A stretch of DNA of 64,000 bases from assembly GCA_003557645.1 (NCBI GenBank), contig PWNV01000020.1, positions 14,328 through 78,327 of the forward strand, given 5' to 3'. The notes below the pieces were generated by a model, which was not told the origin of the DNA, did not search any database, and saw only the letters and a list, made by a program, of their open reading frames with translations. This stretch comes from Candidatus Nealsonbacteria bacterium (GTDB taxonomy: Bacteria; Patescibacteriota; Minisyncoccia; Minisyncoccales; PWPS01). The position numbers and the translations under genes were made by a program. Of the stretch, positions 28,701 through 62,474 are shown in pieces (position 1 is the first letter of the stretch; the number at the start of each line of letters is the position of its first letter).

Positions 28701-29006
28701 TGGATAATTCTCAATTATGTCCAAGCAAAAACTATGAAAAGTGCTAATTGGAACTCTATATGCATCTACGCCTATAAGATCGATTAATCTTTCTCTCATG
28801 TTAAGCGATGCTGCGTCCGTGAAAGTAAGATTAAGAATGTTTTTTGGTGGAGTATCCGTTTTCTCTAGTATATTTGCTGCTCTTAGTCCTAAGAGCTCTG
28901 TCTTCCCAGACCCTGGTCCAGCAAGAACAAGTAAAGGACCATCTATATGCTCTACTGCAAGGAGTTGTCTTTCATTTAACTTTTTATATCTTTCTTTAAA
29001 TTTCAT
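25785..29006 (-). CDS. UvrD-type SF1 helicase fused to a C-terminal RecB-family PD-(D/E)XK nuclease (AddA/RecB-like)
   Basis: 1073 aa with Walker A GPGSGKT, DEFQDT, GDDDQTIYRFQGA and TAHGVKGSEF. The C-terminal nuclease motifs are GKIDKI, VSDFKTG and QLIFY. Confidence 0.88.
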   Translation of the reverse strand: MKFKERYKKLNERQLLAVEHIDGPLLVLAGPGSGKTELLGLRAANILEKTDTPPKNILNLTFTDAASLNMRERLIDLIGVDAYRVPISTFHSFCLDIIENYPEYFYQGADFNLADEAIKTKMVEDILTELEDEDPLKITHPEMGYVYLEDIKKAISLLKEEGIFPIEFKEILGKNKEDLEKINAHISSIFDERVNTRMISELRKIIPKIDKIREKFLMLHFYSLPFMVSESLKKVIETEETGKLSEWKQKWTRKGKDGRLLKDTFYMEKVESMSIIYKKYLEKMQREGYYDFSDMILNVIEVLEKNDALRYDLQEKYLYIQVDEFQDTSGIQMRLLDLMTKDEVHGMPNICVVGDDDQTIYRFQGAEISNILNFKEKYKDTEIITLVENYRSTQDILDVARSIILKGEERLEGILPEVRKDLISIQKGKRGEIIGKAFQTEEEEFSFVAKEVKKKLKDGIKPEEIVVIARTHNTLKKIFQYFKSLEISVFMDRRDNVMEKQHIREIVGIIRFAVFLLQGDRKKAEELLPDILSYSFWEIEKEKIWEISIKSYEENRPWMSYIKKEESLKKIGEFLLDLSVRAKNAPAEEIIDIIIGSKKGSMESPFKSFYFGREVLEKRKGEYLSLLSSLKCFVGAVREHQRGKMIKASDLLEFVDLHENNNIPVLDKNPLIIEEGAVFLSTAHGVKGSEFEVVFVLNCQEEVWGKKRKSEKLILPSNLPFQRNSEGYDDRLRLFYVSLTRAKKSLYLSFHRKRKDGKGFTPLEFIKEIDVDEDSCEINREAVSSFSDSFFFIPFSKKEKNLLFSVVKDYKLSATSFTKFLNVAEEGPQSFLEDSLLRFPRKKSLPLSYGTAVHNSIRELYMKLKKEGKLMKEKEFLSSFVEYLKKERLSESDFRRAKKRGEEALSLFYNKEKNFFSSDHLIERDFKNQGCQVAGIDITGKIDKIIKKEEGIMVSDFKTGSALTSWNEKGKYNKIKAWKYRNQLIFYKLLIETSRDFEKYKVFSGRLEFVEPSEKKEIISLDLEIKKEEAERVAFLIKEVGERIKNLQFPSFEKKETIEDIRKFEEDLLSKKI

Positions 29007-29673
29007 ATTCTTTTGCCCTTTCCCTTGCTCTTAGTGCTTTTTCCGTTGAGAGCCTTACCCCGTAAGAACCCTGATACATAACAGAATGAGGATCACTGCT
29101 ATGCCCTAATCCAAGAAGATGTCCTATCTCGTGTGCAAGAACACGATAATCATGCGATGTTACATAATCTGCTACAGCAAGAGAACTCAATCCGGGAAAA
29201 GCAATTCCATTAATTCCTCTTAGATTGCCAACCAAGAAAATATTTATTCTACTTGAATCATAGCTCTTTACTTCGGAAAGAAAAGAGCGATGGTCATAAA
29301 GAAAAGAATCATTCTCGATATAGATTGAAGAATTATCAACTATTTCAAAAGAAATATTAGCTTGCTCAAAAATACGAAATCCATTTTCTAGAATATGCTC
29401 AACCTCTTCCCTGTTTCTCTTAGAATGAAATGGCTCACCTTTTAAAACAAAAACTGTAACTGGAACCACTATCTCCTCAGCCTCAAAAAGTGCGTCTGGA
29501 AATTCAATATTTACACTTGTTGGTGTTCTCTGATAAAAAAAATAATCTCTTATTCCCGAGAGATAAATTAACGAAACAATCAACAAGGTGGCAAATAAAA
29601 GTTTAGTAGGATAAGACTTTAATATCCCTCCCTCTTCTTGTATTTCTTCAATCTCCTCTGTATGATCAGTCAT
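28996..29673 (-). CDS. membrane-anchored metzincin zinc protease (matrixin/M10-like)
   Basis: 225 aa with an N-terminal TM helix, HEIGHLLGLGH (HExxHxxGxxH) and a downstream Met-turn candidate SVMY. Confidence 0.8.
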   Translation of the reverse strand: MTDHTEEIEEIQEEGGILKSYPTKLLFATLLIVSLIYLSGIRDYFFYQRTPTSVNIEFPDALFEAEEIVVPVTVFVLKGEPFHSKRNREEVEHILENGFRIFEQANISFEIVDNSSIYIENDSFLYDHRSFLSEVKSYDSSRINIFLVGNLRGINGIAFPGLSSLAVADYVTSHDYRVLAHEIGHLLGLGHSSDPHSVMYQGSYGVRLSTEKALRARERAKEYEI

Positions 29674-29701
29674 GCCTTATGGTAAGAGATTAACTTTTCT
29701 T

Positions 29702-30058
29702 TTAAAACTCTACTTTCCATCCCTCTTTTGGCGTAAACTTTTTCTTTGTTGTTCTTGCTTGCTTAATCTTACCAACAATGAAGGAGCGGGTCTCTCCCGT
29801 CTCTGGAATTCTTGCATTTAAAATATGACCCGGACTTAACCTGTCTTTACTATATACAAGATGTTCACCCTCTGGAGGGACGTCTGTTGTGAGGCTATAG
29901 GGCTCGATCTCTCTCCATCCCTCCGAACTGCTTTCTGTCGCTGGATAATATATTTCTACCACTTCTCTAGAGCGAGCAGCCTTAGCTATTACCCTTAAAA
30001 CTTCATAAAAGTCCATGAAGTTTTTCATTTCACTAAAGGAGTTTACCGTCTTTATCAA
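29702..30058 (-). CDS. hypothetical protein, possibly WYL/Sm-like fold (118 aa)
   Basis: ORF overlapping the PPAT 3' end. WREIEPYSL...HILNA...TRSFIVGKIKQA loosely recalls WYL domains. The family assignment is weak. Confidence 0.55.
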   Translation of the reverse strand: MIKTVNSFSEMKNFMDFYEVLRVIAKAARSREVVEIYYPATESSSEGWREIEPYSLTTDVPPEGEHLVYSKDRLSPGHILNARIPETGETRSFIVGKIKQARTTKKKFTPKEGWKVEF

Positions 30059-30464
30059 TTTGACCGTTTCTTATTCTGCTTGATGATATTGGATTTCCGT
30101 CTTCAGCGAGAATAAAATCAATTTCAACAATTTCCATTTCTTTTTTCCCACTTTCTTTGCGTTTTTCATTGATTTCTTTTGCTCGCGCATGTGTCTCTGG
30201 GGAAACTACTATATAATCGAAATCCTCCTCTACCGCAAATCCGTAAGGATCATTTATCTCCTCTACTTTTGCTGTTTCCAAAAAATCAAGAATATCATTT
30301 TTGCGTATTTCAAAACTCTCTACTTCAACCCCCTTAAACTCTTTGGCCATCTCATCAGAAGAAAGACCAACCTTAACTTCCCCGAGTGAAGAAGCTTTTC
30401 CTAACAACTCTTTATGCCCTTTGTGTAATAGATCAAATGTACCTCCAACAACTATTTTTTCCAT
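30033..30464 (-). CDS. archaeal-type phosphopantetheine adenylyltransferase / cytidylyltransferase-fold protein
   Basis: 143 aa. GGTFDLLHKGHKELL (HxGH) and a C-terminal SSSRIR are typical of the COG1019 type rather than bacterial CoaD. Confidence 0.7.
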   Translation of the reverse strand: MEKIVVGGTFDLLHKGHKELLGKASSLGEVKVGLSSDEMAKEFKGVEVESFEIRKNDILDFLETAKVEEINDPYGFAVEEDFDYIVVSPETHARAKEINEKRKESGKKEMEIVEIDFILAEDGNPISSSRIRNGQIDKDGKLL

Positions 30465-30512
30465 ATATTTCTTTTATAAATTAATACTATTTGCAGTATA
30501 TCATCTAGCGTA

Positions 30513-31385
30513 TTAAAATAGCAAATTATCTTTCTCTTCTCTAATCTTTCGCAATATTTGCACATTTTTCTTATCAGGGCCTTTGCCATCAAAACCAGGA
30601 ACTTCCAAGATCCAGGGTATATTGCTTAGCTTTTTATTTTTCATTAGATTTAAAAATCCTTTCCTCCCAATGTAACCTTCTCCAATATTTGCGTGCTTGT
30701 CGTTCCTTGATCCTTGCTTTGTACGAGAATCATTGATATGTAAAAGATGAATATTTTCTATTCCCACTTTTTTCTCCCACCAGGCAACCCATTTTTCTAT
30801 CTGATTTTGCTCAAATTCTTCAATGTTTCCCGACTGAAAAGAGTGCGCTGTATCAATGCAGACCTTTAATTTTTCTGACCCAACTTGCTTTAAGATAAAC
30901 CCTATCTCATCAGGATCAGTTCCAATTTTCTTGTCTCCCGCAGTATTTTCCAAAAAAATCAGTGATTTTCCTGTGAACACTTCTATCATCTCTTTTATTG
31001 CCTTAATTTCTCTTTTTACCGCTTCTTCTTTGTTTCCTTTTTTTGGAGATCCAGGATGATAAACGACCCCTTCTCCATCTATAAAATCACAAAACCTGAG
31101 CGTATTTAAGAGGCTCTGGAAGGACTTTTTATATATTATTTCATCATCTGAAGCAAGATTAATTAAATAACTCGCATGGATGTAAATTGGAAACATCCCA
31201 CTTTCCTGAAGCTCCTTTTTGTATTTTTTCTGCTTTTCTTTTGGTAGTAAGCTGACTTCATACCTTCGAGGACTACCTGCAAATATCTGCATACACTCAG
31301 CATCGATCTTTTTTGCTCGTTCTACCGCCTTGTCAAGTCCTCCTGCAACAGAAATATGTGCTCCTATTGTTGGTTTTAATGTCAT
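30513..31385 (-). CDS. nfo: deoxyribonuclease IV (endonuclease IV)
   Basis: 290 aa, TIM-barrel AP endonuclease with GAHIS, YIHASYLINLAS, CIDTAHSF and HLLHINDS. Confidence 0.9.
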   Translation of the reverse strand: MTLKPTIGAHISVAGGLDKAVERAKKIDAECMQIFAGSPRRYEVSLLPKEKQKKYKKELQESGMFPIYIHASYLINLASDDEIIYKKSFQSLLNTLRFCDFIDGEGVVYHPGSPKKGNKEEAVKREIKAIKEMIEVFTGKSLIFLENTAGDKKIGTDPDEIGFILKQVGSEKLKVCIDTAHSFQSGNIEEFEQNQIEKWVAWWEKKVGIENIHLLHINDSRTKQGSRNDKHANIGEGYIGRKGFLNLMKNKKLSNIPWILEVPGFDGKGPDKKNVQILRKIREEKDNLLF

Positions 31386-31421
31386 AGCTTCTTAAAAGTA
31401 TCTCAATAACAGATATAAAGC

Positions 31422-31452
31422 AAGAAAAAAACGGCGATTTTTCGCCGCTTTT
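31422..31452 (-). terminator. rho-independent terminator after the GerMN-like gene
   Basis: CGGCGA-TTTT-TCGCCG is flanked by A-run and T-run. The minus-strand reading ends in TTTTTTTC. Confidence 0.7.
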
Positions 31453-31469
31453 TCTTTTCCTAAAAAAAT

Positions 31470-32243
31470 TTAGGGCTGAAGGATTTCCTCGGTCTCTCCT
31501 TCAATTGATATTACAACTTCTTCTATTGTCTCAAATTGCAAAAGCGTGTTTTCAATTTGGTCTCGAATCATTGTAACTGTTGCACTGCCTGAAGCATCCA
31601 ATTCTTCACTAAAATCGGCACGAGCAACTCCATTCTCGACAGTGAGAGAATTAAGGGTTGTACCCCCCTCAATCGCTGTTGTATAGTTTTCCTCCATTTC
31701 TGGTCCATCTAAAAGAGTTAGAAGTGTAAACCTTTCCACGTTGTCTGTAGAAACCTCTCTCTCTACCGAAACAAGACTCTCTTGACCATCCTCTACACTG
31801 ACAAAGTAGACATCTACTCTTGTTGTCTCTTCCTCCTCTTCTTCTTCAATCATTGCTCCAGCATGCTCATCAAAAACTCCATCAGTAATAGCACTCACAA
31901 CTTCTCCACCTTCTACTCTAACTACAGTTGTATGAGGAGTTATTACTTGCGCAGCCATCTCTCCCTCTTCAACCTTTCCATAACCAGCAAACATGGCCTC
32001 AAACTCAAGTACTATCTCAAACAAACCTTCTTCTATTTCTTCGGTGCTAATGTGGGTTAATCCTTCTCCCTCTCTTTCAACAAATGTAGGTGCCATTTTT
32101 TCAACCCACTCCTCCGCTACTACCTCAGCTTCTGTCGCAGCCTCATCATCAGGAATTTCAGGAGCCTCCATTCTTGAGATAAGGACACCTGCGACAACAA
32201 TTACAAGAATTACAACTACTACTATAATTAATTTATTACCCAT
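31470..32243 (-). CDS. membrane-anchored acidic protein with C-terminal GerMN-like domain
   Basis: 257 aa with an N-terminal TM helix and a Glu-rich middle (IEEEEEEETT). The C-terminus reads LLTLLDGPEMEENYTTAIEGGTTLNSLTVENGVARADFSEEL. Confidence 0.65.
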   Translation of the reverse strand: MGNKLIIVVVVILVIVVAGVLISRMEAPEIPDDEAATEAEVVAEEWVEKMAPTFVEREGEGLTHISTEEIEEGLFEIVLEFEAMFAGYGKVEEGEMAAQVITPHTTVVRVEGGEVVSAITDGVFDEHAGAMIEEEEEEETTRVDVYFVSVEDGQESLVSVEREVSTDNVERFTLLTLLDGPEMEENYTTAIEGGTTLNSLTVENGVARADFSEELDASGSATVTMIRDQIENTLLQFETIEEVVISIEGETEEILQP

Positions 32244-32265
32244 AATTTATGTATTATTACATTTT

Positions 32266-32805
32266 TTAACTCGACCTTTTACGATGAATCTTCGTCAACA
32301 TTCTTTTTACCTTATAGGGATCCGGTATATCCTGAAACACAAATTCTCTAAACTTTCCTGCAGTTTGTATTTGTAAATTACCATAATTAAAAAAAGTTGG
32401 CAACACTCCCTTAACATCAACACTAATATCCTGTATACGGTCATGATACACGCTGGAAACATAACGATTAAAAAGACCATGTAACTCCGTGTGTATCGTT
32501 CTCTGATTAGTAATTATCCAACAATCAAAAAAATAGCTAAACATAACAACAAAAATACACTGCCAAAAAAGAAAAAGGATAAAAAAACAAAGAAAGAAAA
32601 GGTAAAGAAGAACATTGAACTCTCCCACATGTTCAAAAATAAAAGCAACTCCCTCCGATTCATGAATTGATAAAAACGGTAAGATGAAAACAAAAACTAA
32701 GCTACCAATAAAAACAAGGGCGAAAGGAAACACCTTTATTTTTAAAATTAACGGATGCCTTTGTAAAACAAGTAAGATTTTCTCTTTTTCTCTTAGCTTA
32801 AACAT
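32266..32805 (-). CDS. membrane protein with bacterial PH (YdbS/YdbT-like) domain
   Basis: ORF 32266..32892. I prefer Met30 at 32805 (MFKLREKEKILLVLQRHPL), which leaves only an 8-nt overlap with the upstream 66-aa ORF. It has 2-3 TM helices and then a PH-like C-terminus. Confidence 0.6.
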   Translation of the reverse strand: MFKLREKEKILLVLQRHPLILKIKVFPFALVFIGSLVFVFILPFLSIHESEGVAFIFEHVGEFNVLLYLFFLCFFILFLFWQCIFVVMFSYFFDCWIITNQRTIHTELHGLFNRYVSSVYHDRIQDISVDVKGVLPTFFNYGNLQIQTAGKFREFVFQDIPDPYKVKRMLTKIHRKRSS

Positions 32806-32998
32806 AAAACGAAATAATAAGAAAAATAAGTGAAACAACAAAAAATAAAATGCCTCCTCGATAAAATAGAGGAAAAGCATAGCCAGGAACAATTTTATGC
32901 TTAATAATTTCCTTTTTGAGATATGTCCTTATCGTAAAATAAGTTAACACAAAAAAAGCAAAAAAGATAAGAAGAAGGGCAATAGATATAATAAACAT
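32798..32998 (-). CDS. small membrane protein (66 aa, 2 TM)
   Basis: ORF with two hydrophobic helices, immediately upstream of and coupled to the PH-domain gene. Confidence 0.4.
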   Translation of the reverse strand: MFIISIALLLIFFAFFVLTYFTIRTYLKKEIIKHKIVPGYAFPLFYRGGILFFVVSLIFLIISFYV

Positions 32999-33029
32999 AG
33001 TAAGCCAATTATATTACCTTATTAAATAA

Positions 33030-33056
33030 AAGAAAACCCCTTTAAACAGGGGTTTC
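33030..33056 (-). terminator. rho-independent terminator after the 75-aa acidic gene
   Basis: AAACCCCT-TTAAAC-AGGGGTTT (~33034..33055). The minus-strand reading is followed by TCTTTTATTT. Confidence 0.7.
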
Positions 33057-33100
33057 CTTTGTAAATCTGACTAGGCCAGGCCTTTGTCAGTTTAATTGTT

Positions 33101-33328
33101 TTACTCTTCTTCTTCCTCTTCTTCTTCTTCCTCTTCTTCCTCTTCTTCCTCTTCTGGGTCAACTGGATCAACTGGGTCATCTATGTCAATCGGATCATCT
33201 ATGTCAATCGGATCATCTATGTCAATTGGGTCAATTGGATCAACATCGTCTCCTAAAGAAACAACTCCTACAAGAACTACTACCGCCAGCACGAGAACTA
33301 CTGCAATAAGAATTTTCTTGGTATCCAT
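33101..33328 (-). CDS. membrane-anchored hyperacidic repeat microprotein (75 aa)
   Basis: MDTKKILIAVVLVLAVVVLVGVV (TM helix), then DDVDPIDPIDIDDPIDIDDPIDIDDPVDPVDP, then 17 consecutive Glu. It has its own promoter-like region and terminator. Confidence 0.65.
   Translation of the reverse strand: MDTKKILIAVVLVLAVVVLVGVVSLGDDVDPIDPIDIDDPIDIDDPIDIDDPVDPVDPEEEEEEEEEEEEEEEEE
33174..33227. repeat. 18-bp tandem repeat x3 (coding, DPIDID units), next to a 51-nt homopyrimidine (GAA/GAG)n tract at 33104..33154
   Basis: The units are gggtcatctatgtcaatc, ggatcatctatgtcaatc and ggatcatctatgtcaatt. Confidence 0.85.
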
Positions 33329-33351
33329 ATAGTTTTTTTTAAAATTTAAAA

Positions 33352-33360
33352 CCGACCTTT
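33352..33360 (-). promoter_or_regulatory. AAAGGTCGG box 23 nt upstream of the ATG, 7 nt after a TATACT -10-like hexamer
   Basis: Minus-strand reading is TTGTATaaatttgaaaatttaaTATACTtacaatcAAAGGTCGGttttaaattttaaaaaaaactatATG. Confidence 0.45.
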
Positions 33361-33387
33361 GATTGTAAGTATATTAAATTTTCAAAT

Positions 33388-34173
33388 TTATACAAGCCCC
33401 GCAAGCTGAATTTTGTTATTATCTGCAATAAAGTCAAATTTTCCTTCTATCTGAAAATCATCAAAACAAAGCTTCTTCCCTTGAAAATCATAAAAAGAGC
33501 CCCCTGCCTCATGTAAAAATAGAAGACCCGCCGCTAAGTCATAAAAAGGAATTTGGAAGGTAATGTATCCATCTACTCGCCCAGCTCCTAAAAAAGCAAG
33601 CTCAAGAGAGGCTGATCCTATCTTCCGTAAATCTTTGGATTGTGGATAAATGCAAGAAAGAAACTCTACAATTCGCTCTTTGTTTTTTTCTCCTCCCTCG
33701 CAAAAGACAATGTACGCCTTTTCTCTTTTTCCGATAGCAGATACTCTCACTCTTCTCTTCTTCTTGTTTTTAAGATCAATTAAAAAAGACCCTTTCCCCT
33801 TAACCGCTAAAAATCTTTCTTGTAACGCCGGCGCCTCCATGACACTCACCAAGGGCTCCCCATCTTTCCATAATGATATCGCTACAGAAAAGAAGGGATT
33901 GTGATTTTCAAAGTTTCCAGTGCCATCCAGCGGATCTACAACCCAAACAAAAGGACTATCTTTTTTTACAAATCCTGTTTCTTCTGTAAAATATGAGTGA
34001 GAAGGATATTCATCTTTTATAGAGGCCATAATAAGATCATCTGCAACCTTATCAAAAACACTTTTTACCTCCTTGCTTGTCCCTCTTTTTCCAGCCTTTT
34101 CTCTACGAAAGGAGTTATAAAGAATTTTTCCTGCCCTATTAGCTGTTTTTATTGTAAAATTAAGATAACTCAT
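33388..34173 (-). CDS. suhB: inositol monophosphatase family protein
   Basis: 261 aa with FTEETG, WVVDPLDGTGNF and IGSASLELA motifs. Confidence 0.85.
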   Translation of the reverse strand: MSYLNFTIKTANRAGKILYNSFRREKAGKRGTSKEVKSVFDKVADDLIMASIKDEYPSHSYFTEETGFVKKDSPFVWVVDPLDGTGNFENHNPFFSVAISLWKDGEPLVSVMEAPALQERFLAVKGKGSFLIDLKNKKKRRVRVSAIGKREKAYIVFCEGGEKNKERIVEFLSCIYPQSKDLRKIGSASLELAFLGAGRVDGYITFQIPFYDLAAGLLFLHEAGGSFYDFQGKKLCFDDFQIEGKFDFIADNNKIQLAGLV

Positions 34174-34187
34174 AATTAAAAATATTT

Positions 34188-35438
34188 ATGCACATAAAAG
34201 AAATTACTATAAATCATTATAAGAGCATCAAGAAACCTATGCACATTAGAGACATTTCCGACTTTCAGATTCTTGTAGGAACCAATAACGCGGGAAAAAC
34301 GAACATTCTTGACGCAATCAATCTTTTCTTTGACCAAAACGTGGACGCCGAAAGATTTTTTGATGAAAGTGCTAATCTTGAAATTATTCTAACCCATAAA
34401 GGAGAGTCACACAAGTTATCTTATCGGGGAGGCGAAAGCTCTTATAAAGAACATAATTTTAAAAAGTATTTTGTTCGCATTAATAATTCTCACAATTATC
34501 ATGATGTTGCAAGAAAAATAGAAAACTTTAAAAAAGAACATCCTAAAAATTACCAAGATTTTTCTATTGCACTAAAAGAAAATTTTAAAGACATAGAAGT
34601 TAGCGAGGAGCTTTTTCTATCAAATGTTTTTGCTGACAATAAAGAAAGATCAGTAGAAAGAATAGGGTCTGGGTTTAAGCGTCTTTTTGTAATTTTATTC
34701 TATGTGTTCCACCCTCAATATAAAGTTATACTCATCGATGAACCAGCAACCGATCTTCACCCCTCAGTGATAAGAAAGTTTCTTAATATTTTAAGCGCAA
34801 AAAAACTTGATAAACAAATTTTTCTTACCACTCATCATCCAACTTTTGTGCAAGCAAAGTATCTTCCACAAACATGGAGAGTTTTCCGTGAGGAAGAAGG
34901 GAGCACTTCTCTTTGCGGATTTTCAAAGAGAAAAGTTGACGTTAGTCGCTTTATTCAAGAGATCAATGATGACAACTCAGGAATGCTTTTCTCGGACAAG
35001 GTTTTGCTTGTAGAAGGTGTTTCAGACCGTATTTTTATAAGAGAAATGGTTAACCGTTTTTATAGAAAAGACAAAAGTATAAAAGTGGTATATACGAGTG
35101 GCAAAGGATCAATAGATATCTATGCCAACCTCTGTGAAACTTTCCGTATTCCGTATGCAATAATGCTCGATCGTGATGCAGTAAGCTCAAGCTCTCTCCA
35201 AAGAGTTAAAAAATTTCCTGTCTTCAAGAAAAAAGTTTCTCTTCATAATAAAATTGAAGAGCTAAAGAAAAGAGAAATTTTTATCCTGGAAAAAGATTTA
35301 GAGCACGTATATCCACAAAAATACCCAAGAAAAGAAACCAAACCCCTTACAGCTCTTTTCGTTTCTCAGAACATTAAAAAAGAAGATCTTCAGGACAAGA
35401 GAATGAAAACCATCAAAGAGATGTTAGAGCAAATTTAA
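34188..35438 (+). CDS. OLD-family nuclease: ABC-type ATPase fused to a Toprim domain (compact, 416 aa)
   Basis: Walker A GTNNAGKTN, signature-like GSGFKRLF, Walker B VILIDEPATDLHP and H-loop FLTTHHP. The Toprim domain has VLLVEGVSDRIFI and IMLDRDA. Confidence 0.8.
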   Translation: MHIKEITINHYKSIKKPMHIRDISDFQILVGTNNAGKTNILDAINLFFDQNVDAERFFDESANLEIILTHKGESHKLSYRGGESSYKEHNFKKYFVRINNSHNYHDVARKIENFKKEHPKNYQDFSIALKENFKDIEVSEELFLSNVFADNKERSVERIGSGFKRLFVILFYVFHPQYKVILIDEPATDLHPSVIRKFLNILSAKKLDKQIFLTTHHPTFVQAKYLPQTWRVFREEEGSTSLCGFSKRKVDVSRFIQEINDDNSGMLFSDKVLLVEGVSDRIFIREMVNRFYRKDKSIKVVYTSGKGSIDIYANLCETFRIPYAIMLDRDAVSSSSLQRVKKFPVFKKKVSLHNKIEELKKREIFILEKDLEHVYPQKYPRKETKPLTALFVSQNIKKEDLQDKRMKTIKEMLEQI

Positions 35439-37115
35439 ATCAATCTCTCTTTTCGCCTCTAAGTAAAGAGCATTACTCCACGCCTGATTCAGGCACCCCT
35501 CGCTTCTGTTTTCACTTGCACTACTTATCTCGGTGTGCGCTCCTATCACTCCTTTCCACATTAGCTCTTCCTTACTCGCTTTCATTATTTTTTTAATATA
35601 AGAGGCGTATTTTTTCTTGTTAGTTCTATATAAAACAATAGCCACTAAGTTGTTTAGGTAAAACCAGCTATCACCATTGTGATAGCTTTTTGCATCTTCT
35701 CCGGTGTGTTCTGGATAAAATTTTGAACTACTTTTATCCAAGGTAGCAACACCGCCCCACAAAAGCCATAAATGTGAAAGAGCGCTATCAAAACAATCCT
35801 GCCATTCACTTTTCTTTAAGAGGTGGGGATATATGTAGGCTGCAATAAAAATGTTGGGACGAATATCTTTATCAATCTCCTTGCTAGAAGGGCAGTATCC
35901 ATCAAAAAGAATTGTTCCGTCAAAAAATAAACTTCTTACCTTCCTTCTCATTTCACTCTCAAGTTTCATGTAAAAATTTCTCTCTCCTCTTCTTTTGGCA
36001 AGATTAGATGCAAGGCGATACATGTTTAATCTCATTGCTTGAAGCTCAATTCTTGCCCCACTACGATTTAAACTATCCATCCAAGTTTCTTGCGGCTTAT
36101 TGACGTTAAGACCGTCTTCTGTAAACCCAAGCAGAAGGTCTTCTAAATATTCTTTAAGTGTCTTTCTAATTCTTTCCTTCTCTACCTCTCCCATAAGGGG
36201 CAAAACATCCTCTAGTCTTTTAAATATCCATCCAGGAGCATCCATATTTAATCTTCCCCTAGGACCACTTTCGAGCGCACTTTCAAGTAATCGCAGAAAG
36301 ATAGCTTTCCCTTTTTCTTCCTCAATTTTAAGCACAGAACGAAGCGAAATAGCTTCATCGCGTGGCCAAAACTGAAAAAACCAAGGAAAACCGGCATAAA
36401 TTCCAGGGGGCTTCATACTTAAAAGATCAGCAAGTGATTTTTCTGCGCACAGAACATCTAAATCCCCTTTCCCTGTTGTCGTATTACGAACATGAAGTTT
36501 GTTTGCCTCCCTAAGAGCTTCTTCTTTTTCTTGCGCAATAGCAAAAACAAAGCGTTTACCATAAAGAGCAAGTCCATGAAAAACTTTCCTTTCAAACGGC
36601 TTAGAGTTTCGCTTTTTATCTAATTCATAATAACGTAAAAAATTATCTTTCCTCCCTAATCCTTTTTCACACCTTACGGCTAAAAAAAATCCGTTGCTAA
36701 ATTTTACTAAGAGGGATTCTCCCACCACCTCCACCTCGTAATCAGTGGGGTCTTCGTGAGAGTAAGACTCTCTCATATCCAAAAAAACATTTACTTTCCT
36801 TTTTTCAGTTAATTCATAAATCAGAGTATGAGCTGATTGAGGAAGAAAAAAAAGCTCCTTTAATTTTTCTCTTCTCCTTTCAACGTAATGGAAATTATTT
36901 CTTATTTCTAGGATACTTCCCGCTTCTTCTACCTCAATGTTTTCTATTACCTTATAGAGGTTATCTCTAAGCGCAGCAAACCACCCTTCATAACGACTTT
37001 TCGGCTTTTCATTTAACCACAAATAATCGCCATCTCGATTAGAAAGCATAAAGCCACACTCCTCCGATTCTTTTGTTTCTTGGATTTCTTCGTTTAGAAA
37101 GTGAGTTATTCTCAT
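35424..37115 (-). CDS. amylo-alpha-1,6-glucosidase / glycogen debranching enzyme (GDE_C family)
   Basis: 563 aa. GFPWFFQFWPRDEAISL and an (alpha/alpha)6-barrel-like C-terminus (YHNGDSWFYLN) are typical of archaeal/bacterial GDE. Confidence 0.8.
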   Translation of the reverse strand: MRITHFLNEEIQETKESEECGFMLSNRDGDYLWLNEKPKSRYEGWFAALRDNLYKVIENIEVEEAGSILEIRNNFHYVERRREKLKELFFLPQSAHTLIYELTEKRKVNVFLDMRESYSHEDPTDYEVEVVGESLLVKFSNGFFLAVRCEKGLGRKDNFLRYYELDKKRNSKPFERKVFHGLALYGKRFVFAIAQEKEEALREANKLHVRNTTTGKGDLDVLCAEKSLADLLSMKPPGIYAGFPWFFQFWPRDEAISLRSVLKIEEEKGKAIFLRLLESALESGPRGRLNMDAPGWIFKRLEDVLPLMGEVEKERIRKTLKEYLEDLLLGFTEDGLNVNKPQETWMDSLNRSGARIELQAMRLNMYRLASNLAKRRGERNFYMKLESEMRRKVRSLFFDGTILFDGYCPSSKEIDKDIRPNIFIAAYIYPHLLKKSEWQDCFDSALSHLWLLWGGVATLDKSSSKFYPEHTGEDAKSYHNGDSWFYLNNLVAIVLYRTNKKKYASYIKKIMKASKEELMWKGVIGAHTEISSASENRSEGCLNQAWSNALYLEAKREIDLNLL

Positions 37116-38896
37116 TTTTGTGCAGCATTATGTGCTTCGATGTAGTTTTTAACAAAACTTTCCCAGTCAGCTTGTGAGGCTATCTTCCTTGCTTCAATTT
37201 TATTCTCCACTCGTTCTCTTCTTTTGTTCTGTGAAAATTTGTATAGAAACTGATATAGATCCTCTACTATTTTATTATCATCTTTTTTCTCTCTTTCTAA
37301 AATGTAGATACCGGGTCTCCCTTTTTTCTTTTTTAATTTATTTCGAAATCGCCCAAACCCGGCAAGATCAGTTGTTACCGACGAAACGCCTAGCGCAGCA
37401 GCTTCAAGTGGAGTGTATCCCCACGGCTCATAAAAACTTGGAAAGACGCCAAGATGACAAGCCTCAAGAGCTTCTTCGTAACTAAGATTAGAAAGTCCAT
37501 CATATCCTGTAAGATAAATCGGATAATAAATGACTTTAACTCTATCTTCTTCTTGATTTAAAAGTTCTGCTCTTTTTAGCTCCTCCATGATCTCATCGTG
37601 TGAATGAGTGAGATGGTGAGTTACTAAAGGAGGAGTGCTCTCTTTTCTTTTTAATCGATGTAATTTTTTTTCAATTTCAAAAAGATAATCTTCGCTAATG
37701 AGATTCTCTTTGCTAAGATCCTTTTCTTGTAAGGTGTTATACAAAATTCTTTCTTCTATTTCTGGAAAAGTTCCTTCTAAATAATCACGTAGATCTCGGA
37801 AATATTCTAGATTTTCTAAAAGAGAAGGATTCACTCCCTTTGCTTGGGAAGGAATAAAAAGAAAGGCAACTATAGTGCGGTCACTGTTCTCCTTAATCAT
37901 TTTACGATTTAGTTTTCCCAGGGACTGAATGAATACATCTATCCCTTTAGCACGAAGCTCATTTCTTCCAATAATAAAATAAAATAGTGTCTTTTCTATG
38001 TCAAAAGTGTAGTAAGGGAAGAAAAAAGCAGAAACAAAGCTTCGTAGTCTTCTTCTTTGCAAACGATGCTTTATCACTATCTCTTCAAAACTTAAAAACT
38101 CCTCAATATCAAGCCCATTGGGAAGAATAAAATCTGGCTTTCTTTCAAGAAATTTTTCCGCTTCTATTCCAGTAATTTCGCTCACCGTAGTAAAAACATT
38201 ACATGTACGAGCAGCCGCCTTTTCAATAATGTGCTTAGGATAAACATTATACTTTCTCGCCTCTTCTTCTGGATTAATCTCGTTTAATGACATGTAAAAA
38301 TTAATACTATGGAAAGCTAATGTCCTTCCAAGACTTGTTGCATGAGTAGTAAAAACAGTTTTAACTTCTGTGTTTTTAGAATCTAAATACAGCAACCCTG
38401 CCGCAGAAAGCCACTCGTGAAAATGGGCAGTAATCTTTTTGCTCTTATATGATGAGGAAAGTTCTCTTATAAGCCGGCCTGTTGCATAAGACCAGCAGAC
38501 TGGTTCATCAAAGTCGTATCCCGCCGCCAAAGAGTCCACTTGATAATTGTCCCACAGCTCCTTTTTAATATCATTCACTTTAAAAAAGTAATCAACAAAA
38601 TCAACAAGAATAACAAGTGGTTTTCCTTTAATAAGCCATCTTCCGTAATGGCACCTTATCCCTTCTTTTTCAAGATCTTGGAACACTTTCTTTACTTCTT
38701 TGGGAGCAGCCTCTTCCCGAAACTCTCCCCGAGATTTTTCCGTGTAAGGGCCAATCAAGCAATAATCTTCTCCGTAGTACTGCATCATACGATTTGCCTT
38801 TGATTCAATTACTCGATAAATCCCACCCACCCGATTGCAAACCTCAAAAGATACTTCGTATAATTTATTACTCTTTGGTTTAATATTTTTTTGCAT
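37112..38896 (-). CDS. glycogen synthase of the eukaryote-type GT3 family
   Basis: 594 aa. YEVSFEVCNRVGGIYRVIESKA, HFHEWLSAAGLL, FTTHATSLGR and FPSFYEPWGYTPLEAAA closely follow the signature blocks of animal/fungal glycogen synthase. Confidence 0.85.
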   Translation of the reverse strand: MQKNIKPKSNKLYEVSFEVCNRVGGIYRVIESKANRMMQYYGEDYCLIGPYTEKSRGEFREEAAPKEVKKVFQDLEKEGIRCHYGRWLIKGKPLVILVDFVDYFFKVNDIKKELWDNYQVDSLAAGYDFDEPVCWSYATGRLIRELSSSYKSKKITAHFHEWLSAAGLLYLDSKNTEVKTVFTTHATSLGRTLAFHSINFYMSLNEINPEEEARKYNVYPKHIIEKAAARTCNVFTTVSEITGIEAEKFLERKPDFILPNGLDIEEFLSFEEIVIKHRLQRRRLRSFVSAFFFPYYTFDIEKTLFYFIIGRNELRAKGIDVFIQSLGKLNRKMIKENSDRTIVAFLFIPSQAKGVNPSLLENLEYFRDLRDYLEGTFPEIEERILYNTLQEKDLSKENLISEDYLFEIEKKLHRLKRKESTPPLVTHHLTHSHDEIMEELKRAELLNQEEDRVKVIYYPIYLTGYDGLSNLSYEEALEACHLGVFPSFYEPWGYTPLEAAALGVSSVTTDLAGFGRFRNKLKKKKGRPGIYILEREKKDDNKIVEDLYQFLYKFSQNKRRERVENKIEARKIASQADWESFVKNYIEAHNAAQK

Positions 38897-40091
38897 TTTG
38901 TTTGTTAATTCTTAATTTTAAATCATTTAAAGTATTCATAAAGCAAATAAAAGCATCATAAGGAGAATCGTAGGGACTAAAATAACTATGAACTTCTCCA
39001 TCTGCCAATGTTTTGGTTGACATGTAATAAAATTGATCCGAGGTTTGTAGTCTTCGCCAACTATTGATAATATTCTCATCTCGGGTCTCTAACACATCCT
39101 CCTCTATCTCATATAGTTTCAGCAAGGCGTCTCTTTGCATGTCATTTCCAATCCAAGCTGAAAGATCGCGCTCACTGTCTGCCCAAGAAGTAAGATATGG
39201 AACATCAACCTCATCACGAACTTGATACCTTTCCATCGCCTCACTTAAAGTTAAAAAATCATTATCTGGATTCCTTAATACTTCTTCTGGAAGATGCTTA
39301 AGAAAATTAAAAATTCCCGTTTCTTCCCATTGATGTTCCCCAAACGTCTCATAATCCATAAATAGATTAATAATCTCTCCGTTACCGTTAAACTGTGATA
39401 TCCATCGCCCGAACTTTTCTGCAGTAAGAGGATGTTCTTTCCACTGGCGAGCAGAAAACCGAAATGCAATATCATCAGATAAACGATAATTTTTCAAAAA
39501 AAGTTTTATTTTTTCTGTTCCTTTTGGTTTGTAAAGAAAGTTTGGACTTCTCCATCCAAGAACTCGGTCTAAACCCTCGCCCATTACACCGTAAAGGCCC
39601 ATTGTTTCTGCAATTTTGGCAATATCATTACTATAAGCAAGCTCTGTGCAACGAAAAATACGGGGCTCAACAGAAAAAAGTGACTTTATTTTTTCTCGAT
39701 GCGCCTTTACCTGCTCCTTAAATTCTTTAAGAGAATGCAGAAAAGCAAAAGAATGATGATATGTCTCTGATAAAATCTCTACCCTTCCAGTTTTTATCAA
39801 ATCCTGGAAAGATCTAAGCGTTTCCGGAGAATAGTTTTCCATTTGCTCTAAAACCACACCTGAAAAAGAAAAACTAAAACGAAATTCAGGATATTTCCTT
39901 AAAAGCTCGAGAAGAATTTTATTTGTTGGAAGATAGGATTTTTGAGCAACTTTTTCCATAATCCTTTGATTGTTTAAATCTCCCTCCCCTGCATCATTGA
40001 AATAATTTGAATCATTTCCAATGTCAAAAAAAGAATACTTTTTTATTCTATAGGGTTGATGAACTTGAAAATAAAAACAAACTGATGGCAT
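38880..40091 (-). CDS. glycoside hydrolase family 57 (alpha-amylase/4-alpha-glucanotransferase-like)
   Basis: 403 aa with FYFQVHQPYR, GRVEILSETYHH and FMDYETFGEHQW (GH57 conserved regions). Confidence 0.8.
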   Translation of the reverse strand: MPSVCFYFQVHQPYRIKKYSFFDIGNDSNYFNDAGEGDLNNQRIMEKVAQKSYLPTNKILLELLRKYPEFRFSFSFSGVVLEQMENYSPETLRSFQDLIKTGRVEILSETYHHSFAFLHSLKEFKEQVKAHREKIKSLFSVEPRIFRCTELAYSNDIAKIAETMGLYGVMGEGLDRVLGWRSPNFLYKPKGTEKIKLFLKNYRLSDDIAFRFSARQWKEHPLTAEKFGRWISQFNGNGEIINLFMDYETFGEHQWEETGIFNFLKHLPEEVLRNPDNDFLTLSEAMERYQVRDEVDVPYLTSWADSERDLSAWIGNDMQRDALLKLYEIEEDVLETRDENIINSWRRLQTSDQFYYMSTKTLADGEVHSYFSPYDSPYDAFICFMNTLNDLKLRINKQNAKKY

Positions 40092-40094
40092 GGA

Positions 40095-41303
40095 TTATGA
40101 TAATAATGAGGTATATATATTTATACACTTTCTTGCAGCATTTTTCCAACTTATCTTAGGAAGTTCTTTTAATCCTTCCTGGCAAAGACATTGTGAAAGA
40201 GGGCTGTACTGCAGCGCGGATATAATTTTATTTGCCATCTCTCTTGTATCCCAAAAATCTACCTTTAACGCATGATACAGAACTTCAGAAACTCCGGACT
40301 GTTTAGATATAAGAACTGGGGTTCCACTTGCAAGCGCTTCCAAGGGTGTGATTCCAAACGGCTCAGAAACAGATGGCATTACAAAAAGGTCAGCTAATCG
40401 ATACATTTCCTGAAGTCTTTCACCTCGTAAAAAGCCAGTAAATAAAACCCTATCAGAGATTCCAAGTTTCGCGGTTTCCTCCATTATTTGTTGTTCCATA
40501 TCACCCGAACCACACAAAACAAAAAAAACATTGTCCATACAAGAAAGGACTTCTTTCGCACTTCGAATAAAGTAATCCGGTCCCTTTTGAAGAGTGATTC
40601 TTCCTGTGAAAAGAACTATTTTATTCCCTTTTTCCTTTATTTTATGTATATTTTTAGAGGTAAAATCACAATCGAAGCAATCAATTCCATTGTGCACTAC
40701 TACTATTTTTTCTGGAGAAATTCCGTAATTTTCAATAACTATATTTTTTGTAAAAGCACTAACCACAATAACTTTATCTGCCTTCTCCATCCCCTCTTTT
40801 TCAATTTGATAAACTCGAGAATCAATACCCTCTCCCCCTCCTCTATCAAATTCGGTAGCATGAACATGTACAACCAACTGTTTCCCCGTCCTCTCTTTTG
40901 CTTTTATTCCAGCTCCAAAGGAAAGCCAGTCGTGTGCATGGATTATGTCAAAGGTTTCTCTTTCCGCCAGATTACCACCATAAATAGCATACCTTAAAAC
41001 CTCTTCAAACAAACTCTGCCCATAAACAAGTCCAGGAGAAAAAGAAATAGCCCGAAAATACTCTGTTGATCCTAAATAAGGAGAAAGTGGAGAATCAAAA
41101 CGATGAAAATTCATATAAGATGTTTCTGGAGAAATAATCCTTAAAAATGAATCATCAATATCTTTATTCTTTTTGGGCAATACAAAGGTAATTTCAATTT
41201 TTTCCGCTACCAGTGCTTTAGTAAGTCCCTGGCAGGCAGTTCCAAGACCCCCACTATTGTGGGGAGGAAATTCCCATCCAAACATAAGGACCTTGGTTTT
41301 CAT
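40095..41303 (-). CDS. GT-B retaining glycosyltransferase, GT4/GT5 glycogen-synthase-like
   Basis: 402 aa with N-terminus FGWEFPPHNSGGLGTACQGLTKAL and C-terminus PSVSEPFGITPLEALASGTPV (EX7E-type). Confidence 0.75.
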   Translation of the reverse strand: MKTKVLMFGWEFPPHNSGGLGTACQGLTKALVAEKIEITFVLPKKNKDIDDSFLRIISPETSYMNFHRFDSPLSPYLGSTEYFRAISFSPGLVYGQSLFEEVLRYAIYGGNLAERETFDIIHAHDWLSFGAGIKAKERTGKQLVVHVHATEFDRGGGEGIDSRVYQIEKEGMEKADKVIVVSAFTKNIVIENYGISPEKIVVVHNGIDCFDCDFTSKNIHKIKEKGNKIVLFTGRITLQKGPDYFIRSAKEVLSCMDNVFFVLCGSGDMEQQIMEETAKLGISDRVLFTGFLRGERLQEMYRLADLFVMPSVSEPFGITPLEALASGTPVLISKQSGVSEVLYHALKVDFWDTREMANKIISALQYSPLSQCLCQEGLKELPKISWKNAARKCINIYTSLLS

Positions 41304-41328
41304 AAAAAATTCAAATTATAATATTTTT

Positions 41329-41961
41329 TTAAAAAGGAAGGTTGATTAAATCTCTAGGTTCTTCAATTAAGACATCAGGACGAGATCGCAACAATGCTTC
41401 CCTCGAACTAAGGCCCCAGGTAACAGCAACTGTATGAACTCTAGCCGCCTTTCCTGCTTTTATATCTCTCGTTTCATCGCCTATATATATAAAAATATCG
41501 CTGCCTTTCTTTACTTTTTTGATCGCTTTGTCCTTGCTAAAAAGTCCTGTAGAAAGTACAAAATCAAAATAATTCATTTTATTGTTCTCTAAAAAATCAA
41601 CTACATTTTTTCTTGAGTTTGAGCTCAAAATTCCCATCGTATTCCCTTGGTTTTTAAGGAGTTGCAAGGCTTCATTCATCTCTTTTTTAACTGAAATTCT
41701 TTTCATTTCCTTATTCATTTCATTTTTTGATTTGCGTACTACAAAAAAAAGCTTCAAAAGAGAAACATTGAAATCCCTATAAATACTCTCTATTCCTTCT
41801 TCACGAGCTCTGCGAAACATCTCCGCACTAAATTCGTTCCCTCCCTCCTTTGCTAAAATTTTGTTCAACGTTTCTACGGCCAAAGGAAGCGTATCTGCAA
41901 CTGTCCCATCAAAATCAAAACAATATATTTTTTTCTTTTTAATTGCTTGATTGATAGCCAA
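41329..41961 (-). CDS. HAD-superfamily hydrolase (phosphoglycolate phosphatase / sugar-phosphatase-like)
   Basis: 210 aa with motif I FDFDGTVADT, motif II LSSNS and motif IV GDETRD. Confidence 0.8.
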   Translation of the reverse strand: MAINQAIKKKKIYCFDFDGTVADTLPLAVETLNKILAKEGGNEFSAEMFRRAREEGIESIYRDFNVSLLKLFFVVRKSKNEMNKEMKRISVKKEMNEALQLLKNQGNTMGILSSNSRKNVVDFLENNKMNYFDFVLSTGLFSKDKAIKKVKKGSDIFIYIGDETRDIKAGKAARVHTVAVTWGLSSREALLRSRPDVLIEEPRDLINLPF

Positions 41962-42025
41962 AATAATAATTAATTAGCTTAATAGATTAACTTGAGAAAT
42001 CTTTTCACAAGATCTGGAATTATGA

Positions 42026-42101
42026 TGGCTGCGGGACCAGGACTCGAACCTGGAAACTCCACGTCCAAAGCGTGGCGTGTTACCAATTACACCATCCCGC
42101 A
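42026..42101 (-). tRNA. tRNA-Gln (anticodon UUG), CCA encoded
   Basis: Hand-folded cloverleaf: acceptor UGCGGGA/UCCCGCA (U1-A72), anticodon arm CCACG-CUUUGGA-CGUGG, T arm CCAGG-UUCGAGU-CCUGG, and 3' GCCA. Confidence 0.85.
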
Positions 42102-42170
42102 CTGCAATGCTCTATACATCATAATGTATTTTACTTTTTTGGGCAAGGCCCTTTCATTAATAATATTTTC

Positions 42171-43298: not shown

Positions 43299-43848
43299 TT
43301 TTCTTATAGTTATTTTTTTTTCGATGATAAATAAAATAAATAAATAAAACAAGAAGAATTAAACCACCCACAGCCTGGAATCCATAGTTTTCCCCGATTT
43401 CAATTCCTGCTTGTGTGAGAAAAAGCACAACCCCACCAGCAACAATTACACCAGAGATAATAGCAGCTAAAGACTTAAAATAAGGCAACCCAAACAGAAA
43501 AACAGCTAAAGAAGCTGTCCAAGCTCCAGAAACAGGAAGAGGGATTGCGGTAAATAAAAAAAGAGCAAAAAACCCATACTTACCTACTCTTTCACTATAA
43601 TTTCTTCGTGTTCTTTCAAAAAGATAATTAAAAAACTTTTCCATAAAAGAAAAATTACGAGAAAGCCAAAGAGAAGTCGGTTCCAAGAACGCTAGAATAA
43701 TAAAAATGGGAAAAATGTTCCCCAGAACTGCCCAAAGATAAGCAGAGTAAGGGTTCATTTCATAAACTAGCACTGCCAAAGGGATTGCCGCTCTAAGTTC
43801 AAGCAAAGGCATCATGGCAGTAAAAAATATTTGTAACTCAACTGTCAT
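43291..43848 (-). CDS. integral membrane protein (COG2426 / small multidrug-export-like family, tentative)
   Basis: 185 aa, 4-5 TM. The N-terminus PLLELRAAIPLAV resembles that family. Confidence 0.55.
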   Translation of the reverse strand: MTVELQIFFTAMMPLLELRAAIPLAVLVYEMNPYSAYLWAVLGNIFPIFIILAFLEPTSLWLSRNFSFMEKFFNYLFERTRRNYSERVGKYGFFALFLFTAIPLPVSGAWTASLAVFLFGLPYFKSLAAIISGVIVAGGVVLFLTQAGIEIGENYGFQAVGGLILLVLFIYFIYHRKKNNYKKNV

Positions 43849-51104: not shown

Positions 51105-51115
51105 TAAATTAAAAG

Positions 51116-62450: not shown

Positions 62451-62474
62451 TTCTTGTTGTAATTATAAGAAACT

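Follow-up and report, generated by a model that had tools for sequence, protein, structure and literature searches.

A compact OLD-family ATPase-Toprim gene in Candidatus Nealsonbacteria with the marks of a vertically inherited resident

Does a solitary OLD-family gene that faces all of its neighbours in a small bacterial genome represent a defence module that was inserted there, or a resident of the lineage? The question is raised by a gene at positions 34188 to 35438 of a 64,000-nucleotide stretch of a Candidatus Nealsonbacteria genome (contig PWNV01000020.1 of assembly GCA_003557645.1, positions 14,328 to 78,327), the whole of which was analysed and is called here the window. A preliminary description, made from the letters alone, took the gene for an accessory, single-gene defence module inserted on the opposite strand. 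The analyses reported here point elsewhere, and what is new in them is a minimal OLD protein of an uncharacterised clade that behaves as a resident core-type gene.

The gene and the parts of its product that matter below are given next, invariance having been scored in 22 homologues (36-77% identity to the window protein) and residues having been compared with those of the Thermus scotoductus OLD protein (Ts OLD; PDB 6P74).

34188..35438, plus strand: compact OLD gene, complete, ATG start, 416 codons for 416 amino acids (aa), supported by Pfam, PADLOC, PDB, the structural model and Foldseek
34278..34304, plus strand, residues 31-39: Walker A motif (P-loop) GTNNAGKTN; G31, N33, N34, G36, K37, T38 and N39 invariant
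34488..34652, plus strand, residues ca. 101-155: reduced helical insert of about 45 residues, with three short helices at 104-117, 119-132 and 140-148 (DSSP on the model)
34665..34688, plus strand, residues 160-167: ABC-signature-like motif GSGFKRLF; R158, G160, G162 and F163 invariant
34725..34763, plus strand, residues 180-192: Walker B motif and D-loop VILIDEPATDLHP, with D184, the catalytic E185 and H191; E185, L190, H191 and P192 invariant
34821..34841, plus strand, residues 212-218: H-loop FLTTHHP, aligned with STHSP of Ts OLD (H310); T214 invariant, T215 and H216 nearly so
34998..35357, plus strand, residues 271-390: OLD-type Toprim nuclease core (PF20469); E276, G277, S279, D280, D328, D330, E372 and K385 invariant

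Several sources agree on the family of this protein. The Pfam matches to AAA_21 (3.6e-21), AAA_15 (4.9e-21) and OLD-like_TOPRIM PF20469 (9.7e-15, residues 267-330) all exceed their curated cut-offs, the last with 55 bits against a cut-off of 23, and the top PADLOC model is Old (7.4e-33), followed by ATPase-Toprim_I-B and many GajA models. NCBIfam gave sub-threshold matches only, among them one of 72 bits to the Eco8 effector model, the cut-off of which is 250. The closest solved structure by sequence is Ts OLD (8e-12, a partial match), and an AlphaFold2 model built from the 22 homologues (predicted local distance difference test 88.8, predicted TM-score 0.86) has as its best Foldseek matches Ts OLD (6p74, 1.2e-17), GajA (8u7i and 8x5i, 1.2e-14) and the retron-Eco8 effector (9lpa, 3e-14). 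The six motifs that the preliminary description had read from the sequence, those of the Toprim included, are all present at their residues, and the OLD-family ATPase-Toprim identity proposed there is upheld by Pfam, PADLOC and Foldseek.

In the ATPase half, K37 falls in the region aligned to K34 of Ts OLD, R97 is a nearly invariant Q-loop candidate, and the signature-like motif stands about 20 residues upstream of Walker B, which is the usual place of the signature. The Walker B stretch VILIDEPATDLHP aligns with IIEEPEMYLHP of Ts OLD (E276, H283). In the Toprim half, VLLVEGVSDRIFI at residues 272-284 and IMLDRDA at residues 325-331 align with LLVEGYGDR (E377, D381) and HDEDV (D431, D433) of Ts OLD. 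By this alignment the predicted metal-A ligands E276, D328 and D330 correspond to Ts OLD E377, D431 and D433, and the predicted metal-B ligand D280 to D381; the pairing of E372 with E480, and of K385 (or K378), as the transition-state residue, with the role of R487, is a candidate assignment drawn from motif order. Since both motif sets are kept and correspond to catalytic residues of Ts OLD, the ATPase and Toprim active sites both look intact, and the open reading frame (ORF) most likely encodes an intact, catalytically complete OLD-family enzyme with an ABC-type ATPase head and an OLD-type Toprim two-metal nuclease. A family motif, DEPEIHLHP, is nearly invariant; it reads DEPATDLHP in the window and DEPSIDLHP in a relative that is 77% identical, so that E187 and H189 after Walker B (nt 34746-34754) are substituted in this pair only, the catalytic E185 and H191 being kept.

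The protein is, as had been remarked, clearly shorter than known OLD and GajA proteins: its 416 aa compare with 525 in Ts OLD, 552 in Escherichia coli YbjD and 550-740 in ordinary OLD relatives. The segment between Walker A and Walker B measures 148 aa in the window protein and 242 aa in Ts OLD. Within the family it ranges from 146-152 aa in the window's subclade through 162-188 aa in other Patescibacteria subclades and 207-214 aa in Kerfeldbacteria to 254-257 aa in DPANN archaea (257 aa in the Nanoarchaeota relative), whereas the distances from Walker B to the Toprim Glu (90-94 aa) and from there to the C-terminus (134-145 aa) are constant; all of the length variation in the family thus sits between Walker A and Walker B. 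The shortness is therefore due solely to the trimming of this segment, the remainder having normal OLD length. On the model, the reduced insert occupies the position of the four-helix dimerisation domain of Ts OLD, and together with the preceding beta hairpin it is the least conserved region of the protein (0.45-0.55). The modelled C-terminus consists of beta4 (364-366) followed by helices at 385-395, 398-402 and 404-415 and ends at residue 416, with no C-terminal helical domain. With full-length members of about 400-420 aa and a dimerisation insert that is nearly deleted, this is the smallest natural full-length OLD scaffold in these searches.

Whether such a gene was inserted is best judged from its surroundings, the immediate elements of which are:

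33388..34173, minus strand: inositol monophosphatase family (suhB-like) gene (PF00459, 5e-45), upstream divergent neighbour; context, not partner
34174..34187: gap of 14 nt between the divergent suhB-like and OLD start codons
35424..35438: convergent 3' overlap of 15 nt between the OLD and GDE genes
35424..37115, minus strand: amylo-alpha-1,6-glucosidase (GDE) gene (PF06202, 4.7e-26), downstream convergent neighbour and the gene nearest to OLD in a conserved glycogen cluster; context, not partner

The OLD gene stands within a run of minus-strand genes of 19.6 kb (24287..43848), in which the only other plus-strand ORFs of at least 120 aa (31993-32376 and 40488-40997) are antisense, inside or across minus-strand genes. 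The lone plus-strand position in a run of ca. 20 kb, as well as the 14-nt and 15-nt junctions (34174-34187 and 35424-35438), had been the starting point of the insertion proposal and are correct as observations. The same place and orientation are nevertheless retained in relatives whose OLD proteins are 77% (locus L001), 62-63% (L003, L005, L008), 56% (L010) and 46% (L006) identical to that of the window. The usual layout has OLD between a block running from an AddA-like gene to genes for a CTP-transferase, endonuclease IV and a Germane-domain protein, and a block of GDE, glycogen synthase, GH57 and GT4 genes; in L001 the glycogen block has been replaced. A survey was then anchored on GDE, the alignment of which was scanned over metagenome contigs before tblastn was applied. 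OLD was found convergent with GDE in 13 of the 14 complete loci having a GDE at least 42% identical; where the GDE was more distant, OLD never occupied that position. Once duplicate organisms are removed, 16 distinct Patescibacteria lineages, with pairwise OLD identities of 45-77%, share the position and orientation, and the opposite-strand layout is kept in all 16.

OLD has also diverged together with its neighbours: its pairwise identities correlate with those of GDE (Pearson 0.93 over 15 loci) and glycogen synthase (0.93 over 14 loci); common ancestry and the division of the sample into two groups inflate both values. Pairwise identity averages 0.55 in OLD and 0.49 in GDE. The means are 0.57 in OLD against 0.53 in the Germane-domain protein (12 shared loci) and 0.655 in OLD against 0.58 in endonuclease IV (8 shared loci), so that OLD is conserved as much as its neighbours or more. 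The comparison of composition and codon usage with the neighbours, proposed in the preliminary description, reveals no shift: GC content (0.335), GC content at third codon positions (0.29) and codon-usage distance (0.057) all fall in the range of the neighbouring genes. No direct or inverted repeats flank the gene, only short A/T-rich chance matches, and neither an integrase nor an adjacent tRNA was found by it, the nearest tRNA lying ca. 6.6 kb off at 42026. No close homologue was detected in IMG/VR (2.9 million contigs; three marginal matches, two in the P-loop region only and one at 25% identity), among INPHARED phages (one partial match, 31%) or among PLSDB plasmids (distant partial OLD matches only), which is weak negative evidence because mobile elements of Patescibacteria are barely sampled in these collections.

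These data argue that the OLD gene is a vertically inherited resident rather than an insertion, and that its position most likely dates back to an ancestor shared by at least 16 lineages. As the lone plus-strand layout and the tight junctions are conserved among lineages, they would represent an old arrangement of a compact genome and not an insertion scar. The preliminary description had itself named conservation of position across the lineage as the sign of a core gene, and this is essentially what the 13 of 14 loci and the 16 lineages display; its proposal of an inserted accessory gene is not supported, given the shared synteny, the co-divergence, the native composition and the missing flanking repeats.

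Outside the window's own subclade, the gene occupies other contexts. In a second subclade (four loci) it lies in the order sigma70-DUF8128-TrwB...OLD-mnmA-alaS-infA-ribosomal genes, and in a third, Komeilibacteria-like one (nine loci) in the order CAP/Ham1-OLD-two conserved genes, with T2SSE (type IV pilus/secretion) or chemotaxis genes further downstream in several. One further family member is flanked by a HAD hydrolase gene on one side and rpmF-nusB-rnc on the other. The two conserved genes of the third subclade (315 and 339 aa, no Pfam match) always follow OLD on the same strand (L168, 4118-6089; likewise L013, L016-L018 and L020-L022); chemotaxis genes lie downstream of them in L168 and L169, and T2SSE further downstream in several Komeilibacteria-like loci. 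They are probably pilus-assembly genes and not partners of OLD. Some database titles look unreliable, L016, L017, L018, L021 and L022 being entered as 'uncultured Gammaproteobacteria bacterium' and L008 as 'Saccharibacteria', yet having Komeilibacteria-like or Nealsonbacteria-like OLD synteny. Among DPANN archaea, a 526-aa Nanoarchaeota relative (MBU0666826; L171/L172, 4354-9709) is found in the co-directional order grpE-dnaK-OLD-dnaJ with an OLD-dnaJ gap of at most 1 nt. This order was considered as a general archaeal context and rejected, as it is true of one Nanoarchaeota cluster and the DPANN cluster L177 differs.

One neighbourhood departs from the rule. In L001 (9286-15083), a variable block stands between OLD and dnaX in place of the ancestral glycogen cluster; it comprises SOD, an SLFN/ResIII helicase (PADLOC PDC-S41, Nhi and AbiO; about 1e-11 to 5e-13), a MazG-like gene, Maf, DUF2726 and a McrB_N/NucS_C protein (PADLOC PDC-S02, 5e-46). 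No defence island was found at the other 15 of the 16 syntenic loci.

The family to which the protein belongs was delimited by a profile search over 1.84 billion cluster representatives. About 25 clusters scored above 270 bits, with full-length members of 369-484 aa; the next tier was a group of 526-538 aa (235-312 bits) that includes the Nanoarchaeota protein MBU0666826, and ordinary OLD proteins (550-740 aa) reached at most 170 bits. The compact OLD proteins appear from this to form a small, discrete clade confined to Patescibacteria, with longer proteins of other Patescibacteria and of DPANN archaea as nearest kin. Relatives of the OLD protein are labelled Nealsonbacteria or Paceibacterota, and at least 15 full-length matches to the family were obtained among GTDB species representatives; the family seems to be lineage-restricted within Patescibacteria, not universal.

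Some of the profile-search clusters resolved to Kerfeldbacteria MBI2427004 and OGY85351, Parcubacteria OIP80295 and Nanoarchaeota MBU0666826, all of which carry the label 'U2' in Dataset EV1 of Yang et al. (2025, EMBO Rep, PMC12796447). In that study U2 is an uncharacterised, mixed bacterial and archaeal OLD clade outside Classes 1-4, and its mixed pattern is taken as the horizontal spread typical of defence genes (PMC12796447). The window family would be a compact bacterial branch of this clade of Patescibacteria and DPANN archaea, already present in the phylogeny of Yang et al. (2025) though not characterised there. The bacterial U2 members OIP80295, MBI2427004, OGY85351 and MFA5030183 are the nearest relatives of the window protein, with 29-35% identity and E-values of 1e-58 to 1e-71 over ca. 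400 stored residues (window residues 1 to 334-356), and have in common with it the motif RLVQELNADN..FFADKVLLVEGVSDRI. The first three score 339-434 bits against at most 170 for ordinary OLD proteins, MFA5030183 not having been recovered in the profile search. By score the U2 members are the nearest, the match to Ts OLD being 8e-12 and partial. There are differences as well: the listed U2 members are longer (459-526 aa), the excess lying in the insert between Walker A and Walker B; the syntenic subclades of 403-445 aa seem absent from Dataset EV1, which holds four Patescibacteria/Parcubacteria entries only and no Komeilibacteria or Nealsonbacteria entry; and the bacterial subclades behave here as vertically inherited, whereas the paper treats U2 as a mixed clade of horizontal spread.

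By analogy with characterised OLD enzymes, the head (K37, R97, E185, H191, H216) would bind and hydrolyse ATP and thereby gate the Toprim active site, in which metal A would be held by E276, D328 and D330 and metal B by D280 and E372, together with K385 or K378. Once gated, this site would nick or cleave nucleic acid, most probably duplex DNA, nicking or cleavage of DNA having been shown for Ts OLD, Vc OLD and Cran1 (for Cran1, PMC12796447). The least certain step is the role, which would be a fixed, lineage-wide function in DNA or chromosome transactions and not that of a mobile anti-phage module. The model for it is Cran1 of archaea, a monomeric, essential nickase that depends on its ATPase, is linked to the cell cycle and does not serve in defence (Yang et al. 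2025, PMC12796447); a cellular DNA-transaction role is favoured because the same evolutionary pattern led Yang et al. to test Cran1, with that outcome.

Two explanations that would do away with this scheme altogether can be taken first. That the protein is a mis-assigned housekeeping ATPase of RecF/SbcC/SMC type, an outcome which the preliminary description had allowed for, did not come about and is hardly credible: the N-terminal matches to SMC_N (1.5e-10), recF (5e-6) and SMC (4e-6) are weak and confined to residues 1-49, the NCBIfam models match the P-loop region only (residues 1-47, essentially the first 45 or so) with 25.8 bits against a cut-off of 172 for recF and 24.7 against 729 for SMC, the C-terminal half carries every catalytic residue of an OLD-type Toprim, and over its full length the structure matches OLD proteins. 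That the gene is a recently inserted accessory defence module, variably present among close relatives, is very improbable too. The strand opposite to all neighbours, the very tight junctions and the OLD-family identity would suit it, but the opposite-strand layout recurs in all 16 syntenic lineages, OLD co-diverges with its neighbours, and the composition is native, with no flanking repeats, integrase or adjacent tRNA (nearest at 42026). The marks of an accessory or mobile defence gene (variable presence, island or mobile context, odd composition) were not found, the L001 neighbourhood being the one exception.

What remains to be weighed is the function of a fixed gene. The best reading is that the protein is a Toprim nickase, gated by ATP and passed on vertically, which serves a fixed function in the cell as archaeal Cran1 does, and we would put our confidence in it at about the halfway point. 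Several observations speak against it: the cellular role is read from evolutionary behaviour alone, and the identity correlations behind part of that reading are inflated as said above; phage defence is the function of nearly every bacterial OLD protein that has been characterised; the family falls well short of universal presence in Patescibacteria, given the number of GTDB matches; U2 mixes bacteria and archaea, a pattern that Yang et al. link to the horizontal spread of defence genes (PMC12796447); in the closest relative, L001, OLD borders the variable block with its Nhi/AbiO-like and PDC-S02-like candidate defence genes; and the neighbours display no consistent DNA-metabolism theme across subclades. 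Some of these facts lend weight to a stand-alone, Class-1-type anti-phage nuclease that shares this ATP-controlled Toprim biochemistry, became fixed in the chromosome, is triggered by infection to nick phage or host DNA, and was kept because small-genome symbionts carry few other defences, a reading which we consider a serious possibility without favouring it. It would account for the ranking of the PADLOC models, for the stand-alone context that defines Class 1, for the candidate defence genes beside OLD in L001, for the Patescibacteria/DPANN mixture of U2, which suggests past horizontal transfer, and for the patchiness of the family across Patescibacteria; Vc OLD is moreover a Class 1 defence enzyme that nicks, and YbjD of E. 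coli, a conserved chromosomal gene, is anti-phage when induced (PMC13261556). It has to contend with a synteny held down to about 45% identity in 16 lineages, with three subclades each having a stable housekeeping context, with an OLD substitution rate like or below that of neighbouring metabolic and repair genes, with 15 of 16 loci lacking a defence island, and with the absence of the family from viral, phage and plasmid collections (in which Patescibacteria mobile elements are poorly sampled); deletion of ybjD gave no phage phenotype (PMC13261556), and vertical inheritance of an OLD protein does not imply defence, as Cran1 shows. The single-gene defence module of the preliminary description accordingly keeps its stand-alone character and loses its accessory or mobile nature, for which there is no support, while its defence role is weakened only. 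Improbable, by comparison, is an RNA-directed enzyme, which like P2 Old (a cutter of the tRNA anticodon arm) would use its Toprim to cleave tRNA or other RNA as a stress or abortive-infection response: one distant subclade does lie directly upstream of the tRNA-related mnmA and alaS, but that context is limited to this subclade, the metal-ligand set is the same as in the DNA-nicking Ts OLD, and no sequence feature separates an RNA from a DNA substrate. Returning to the Cran1-like reading, a bolder version of it, which we put forward only tentatively and judge rather unlikely in all its parts, would make the compact Patescibacteria OLD proteins, and perhaps their longer DPANN kin, the bacterial counterpart of Cran1, that is a minimal, possibly monomeric ATP-gated nickase needed by these ultra-small symbiotic cells for chromosome replication, segregation or repair, the family having moved between reduced-genome lineages as a cellular function.

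The 14-nt spacing between OLD and the suhB-like gene is identical in L001 (7987-8000), and promoters for both genes, if any, must lie inside neighbouring coding sequences; the promoter-like site at 33965-33992 (plus strand) belongs to a scan whose counts were not above shuffled expectation. The suhB-like gene adjoins OLD in L001, L002 and L101 and is missing in L003, L005 and L008; in L006 it is present as fragments only, another ORF lying between these and OLD. Tight convergent packing with GDE is kept in relatives, with a 4-nt overlap in L005 and L006 and a 1-nt gap in L003. Both ends of the OLD gene are well supported, as the starts and stops of the homologues fall at the same alignment columns. 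No terminator was found in the OLD/GDE overlap, in agreement with what had been noted. A perfect hairpin with a 9-bp stem and T-rich tails on both strands, resembling a bidirectional terminator, lies within the coding part of GDE at 35666..35687, 228 nt beyond the stop codon of OLD, and could end OLD transcripts; the number of terminator-like hairpins in the window is not above chance (shuffled) expectation.

Further genes of the neighbourhood are:

25785-29006, minus strand: AddA-like UvrD/PDDEXK helicase-nuclease, 1073 aa, about 5 kb from OLD and not adjacent
30513-31385, minus strand: endonuclease IV-type AP endonuclease, upstream of OLD
42171-43352, minus strand: dnaX homologue, downstream of OLD

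Genes of DNA-repair type are found 3-9 kb upstream of OLD (within 24287..31385, minus strand), and their closeness to it, like that of dnaX, is kept within the window's subclade and not in other subclades. Downstream, the glycogen cluster (35424..41303, minus strand) comprises GDE, a PF05693-type glycogen synthase (1.8e-157), a GH57 enzyme and a GT4/GT5 glycosyltransferase, and is kept across most of the OLD subclade in these small Patescibacteria genomes. At 33101..33328 (minus strand), an ORF of 75 aa encodes a transmembrane helix at its N-terminus, DPID-type repeats and, at the C-terminus, 16 consecutive Glu; it is syntenic in L001 (6909-7142) and L005 (7605-7838), is the immediate divergent neighbour of OLD in L003 and L005, and accounts for a local AT-skew peak. 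That its membrane-anchored polyacidic tail could mimic DNA is pure speculation. Rfam and ARAGORN detected in the window tRNA-Gln(ttg) at 42026..42101, tRNA-Glu(ctc) at 51115..51188 and a ribosomal protein L10 leader at 62337..62460, and nothing else.

The locus has some bearing on how OLD proteins are counted. They are now near-default anti-phage calls, and defence finders based on hidden Markov models would probably label the window protein 'Old' or 'GajA-like'; yet a whole bacterial OLD clade can act like a core gene, with fixed synteny, co-divergence and native composition, and caution is due before such matches are tallied as defence systems in Patescibacteria censuses. The compact OLD offers a second, bacterial test case after the archaeal Cran1 for OLD roles outside defence, as well as a minimal scaffold on which the control of the Toprim nuclease by the ATPase head could be studied.

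Compared with characterised systems, the window protein has the ATPase and Toprim fold in common with GajA, the retron-Eco8 effector and AriA/AriB of PARIS, to which it gives strong Foldseek and PADLOC matches. These proteins are longer (570-740 aa) and require partners: the GajB helicase, a reverse transcriptase with its multicopy single-stranded DNA, and split AriA plus AriB, respectively. No helicase, reverse transcriptase or retron RNA lies adjacent to the OLD gene, and no partner gene (helicase, reverse transcriptase, GajB or AriB) is conserved across the five context types, which bears out the earlier remark that no helicase, reverse transcriptase or second gene is adjacent and that the context is stand-alone, as in Class 1. 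Membership of Gabija was rejected, as a GajB UvrD-like helicase gene adjacent to OLD occurs neither in the window nor in the related loci, and so was an Eco8-type retron, there being no reverse transcriptase among the neighbours and Rfam showing two tRNAs and the L10 leader only.

Among the stand-alone systems, Ts OLD (Class 1; PDB 6P74; Schiltz et al. 2020) is the solved structure that the window protein matches best in both sequence and fold. The residues that pair (Ts OLD/window) are K34/K37, E276/E185, H283/H191 and H310/H216 in the ATPase and E377/E276, D381/D280, D431/D328 and D433/D330 in the Toprim, and in both proteins, judging for the window protein from the model, helices follow the last Toprim strand without a separate C-terminal helical domain. 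Ts OLD is, however, 109 aa longer, about 90 of these forming the four-helix dimerisation domain that buries 3479 A^2, and identity in the structural alignment is about 15%. With respect to Class 1, the window gene stands alone, its neighbours being an inositol monophosphatase and a GDE gene, both on the other strand, but the four-helix insert of Ts OLD is replaced in the model by three short helices (104-148). YbjD (OldB) of E. coli, also of Class 1, is likewise a chromosomal, isolated OLD gene, convergent with one neighbour among ordinary genes, and homologues of the window protein give weak Pfam matches to DUF2813, the N-terminus of YbjD. Its induction gives anti-phage phenotypes and its deletion gave none (Atahualpa et al. 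2026, PMC13261556). It measures 552 aa and is no close relative of the window protein, of which DUF2813 covers residues 1-58 only.

The likeness to Cran1, of the Class 5 OLD proteins of Sulfolobales, is of another kind and lies in evolutionary behaviour: both belong to taxonomically restricted, vertically inherited clades in which the catalytic residues are all kept. Membership of Class 5 was rejected, the window protein being bacterial and closest to U2, not to the Sulfolobales clade U11. Cran1 is an archaeal protein of about 55 kDa, the Toprim domain of which contains an alpha-helical insertion, and it is homologous to the window protein at the family level only. It may nevertheless, by this analogy of behaviour and not of clade, be the best model for how the window gene works.

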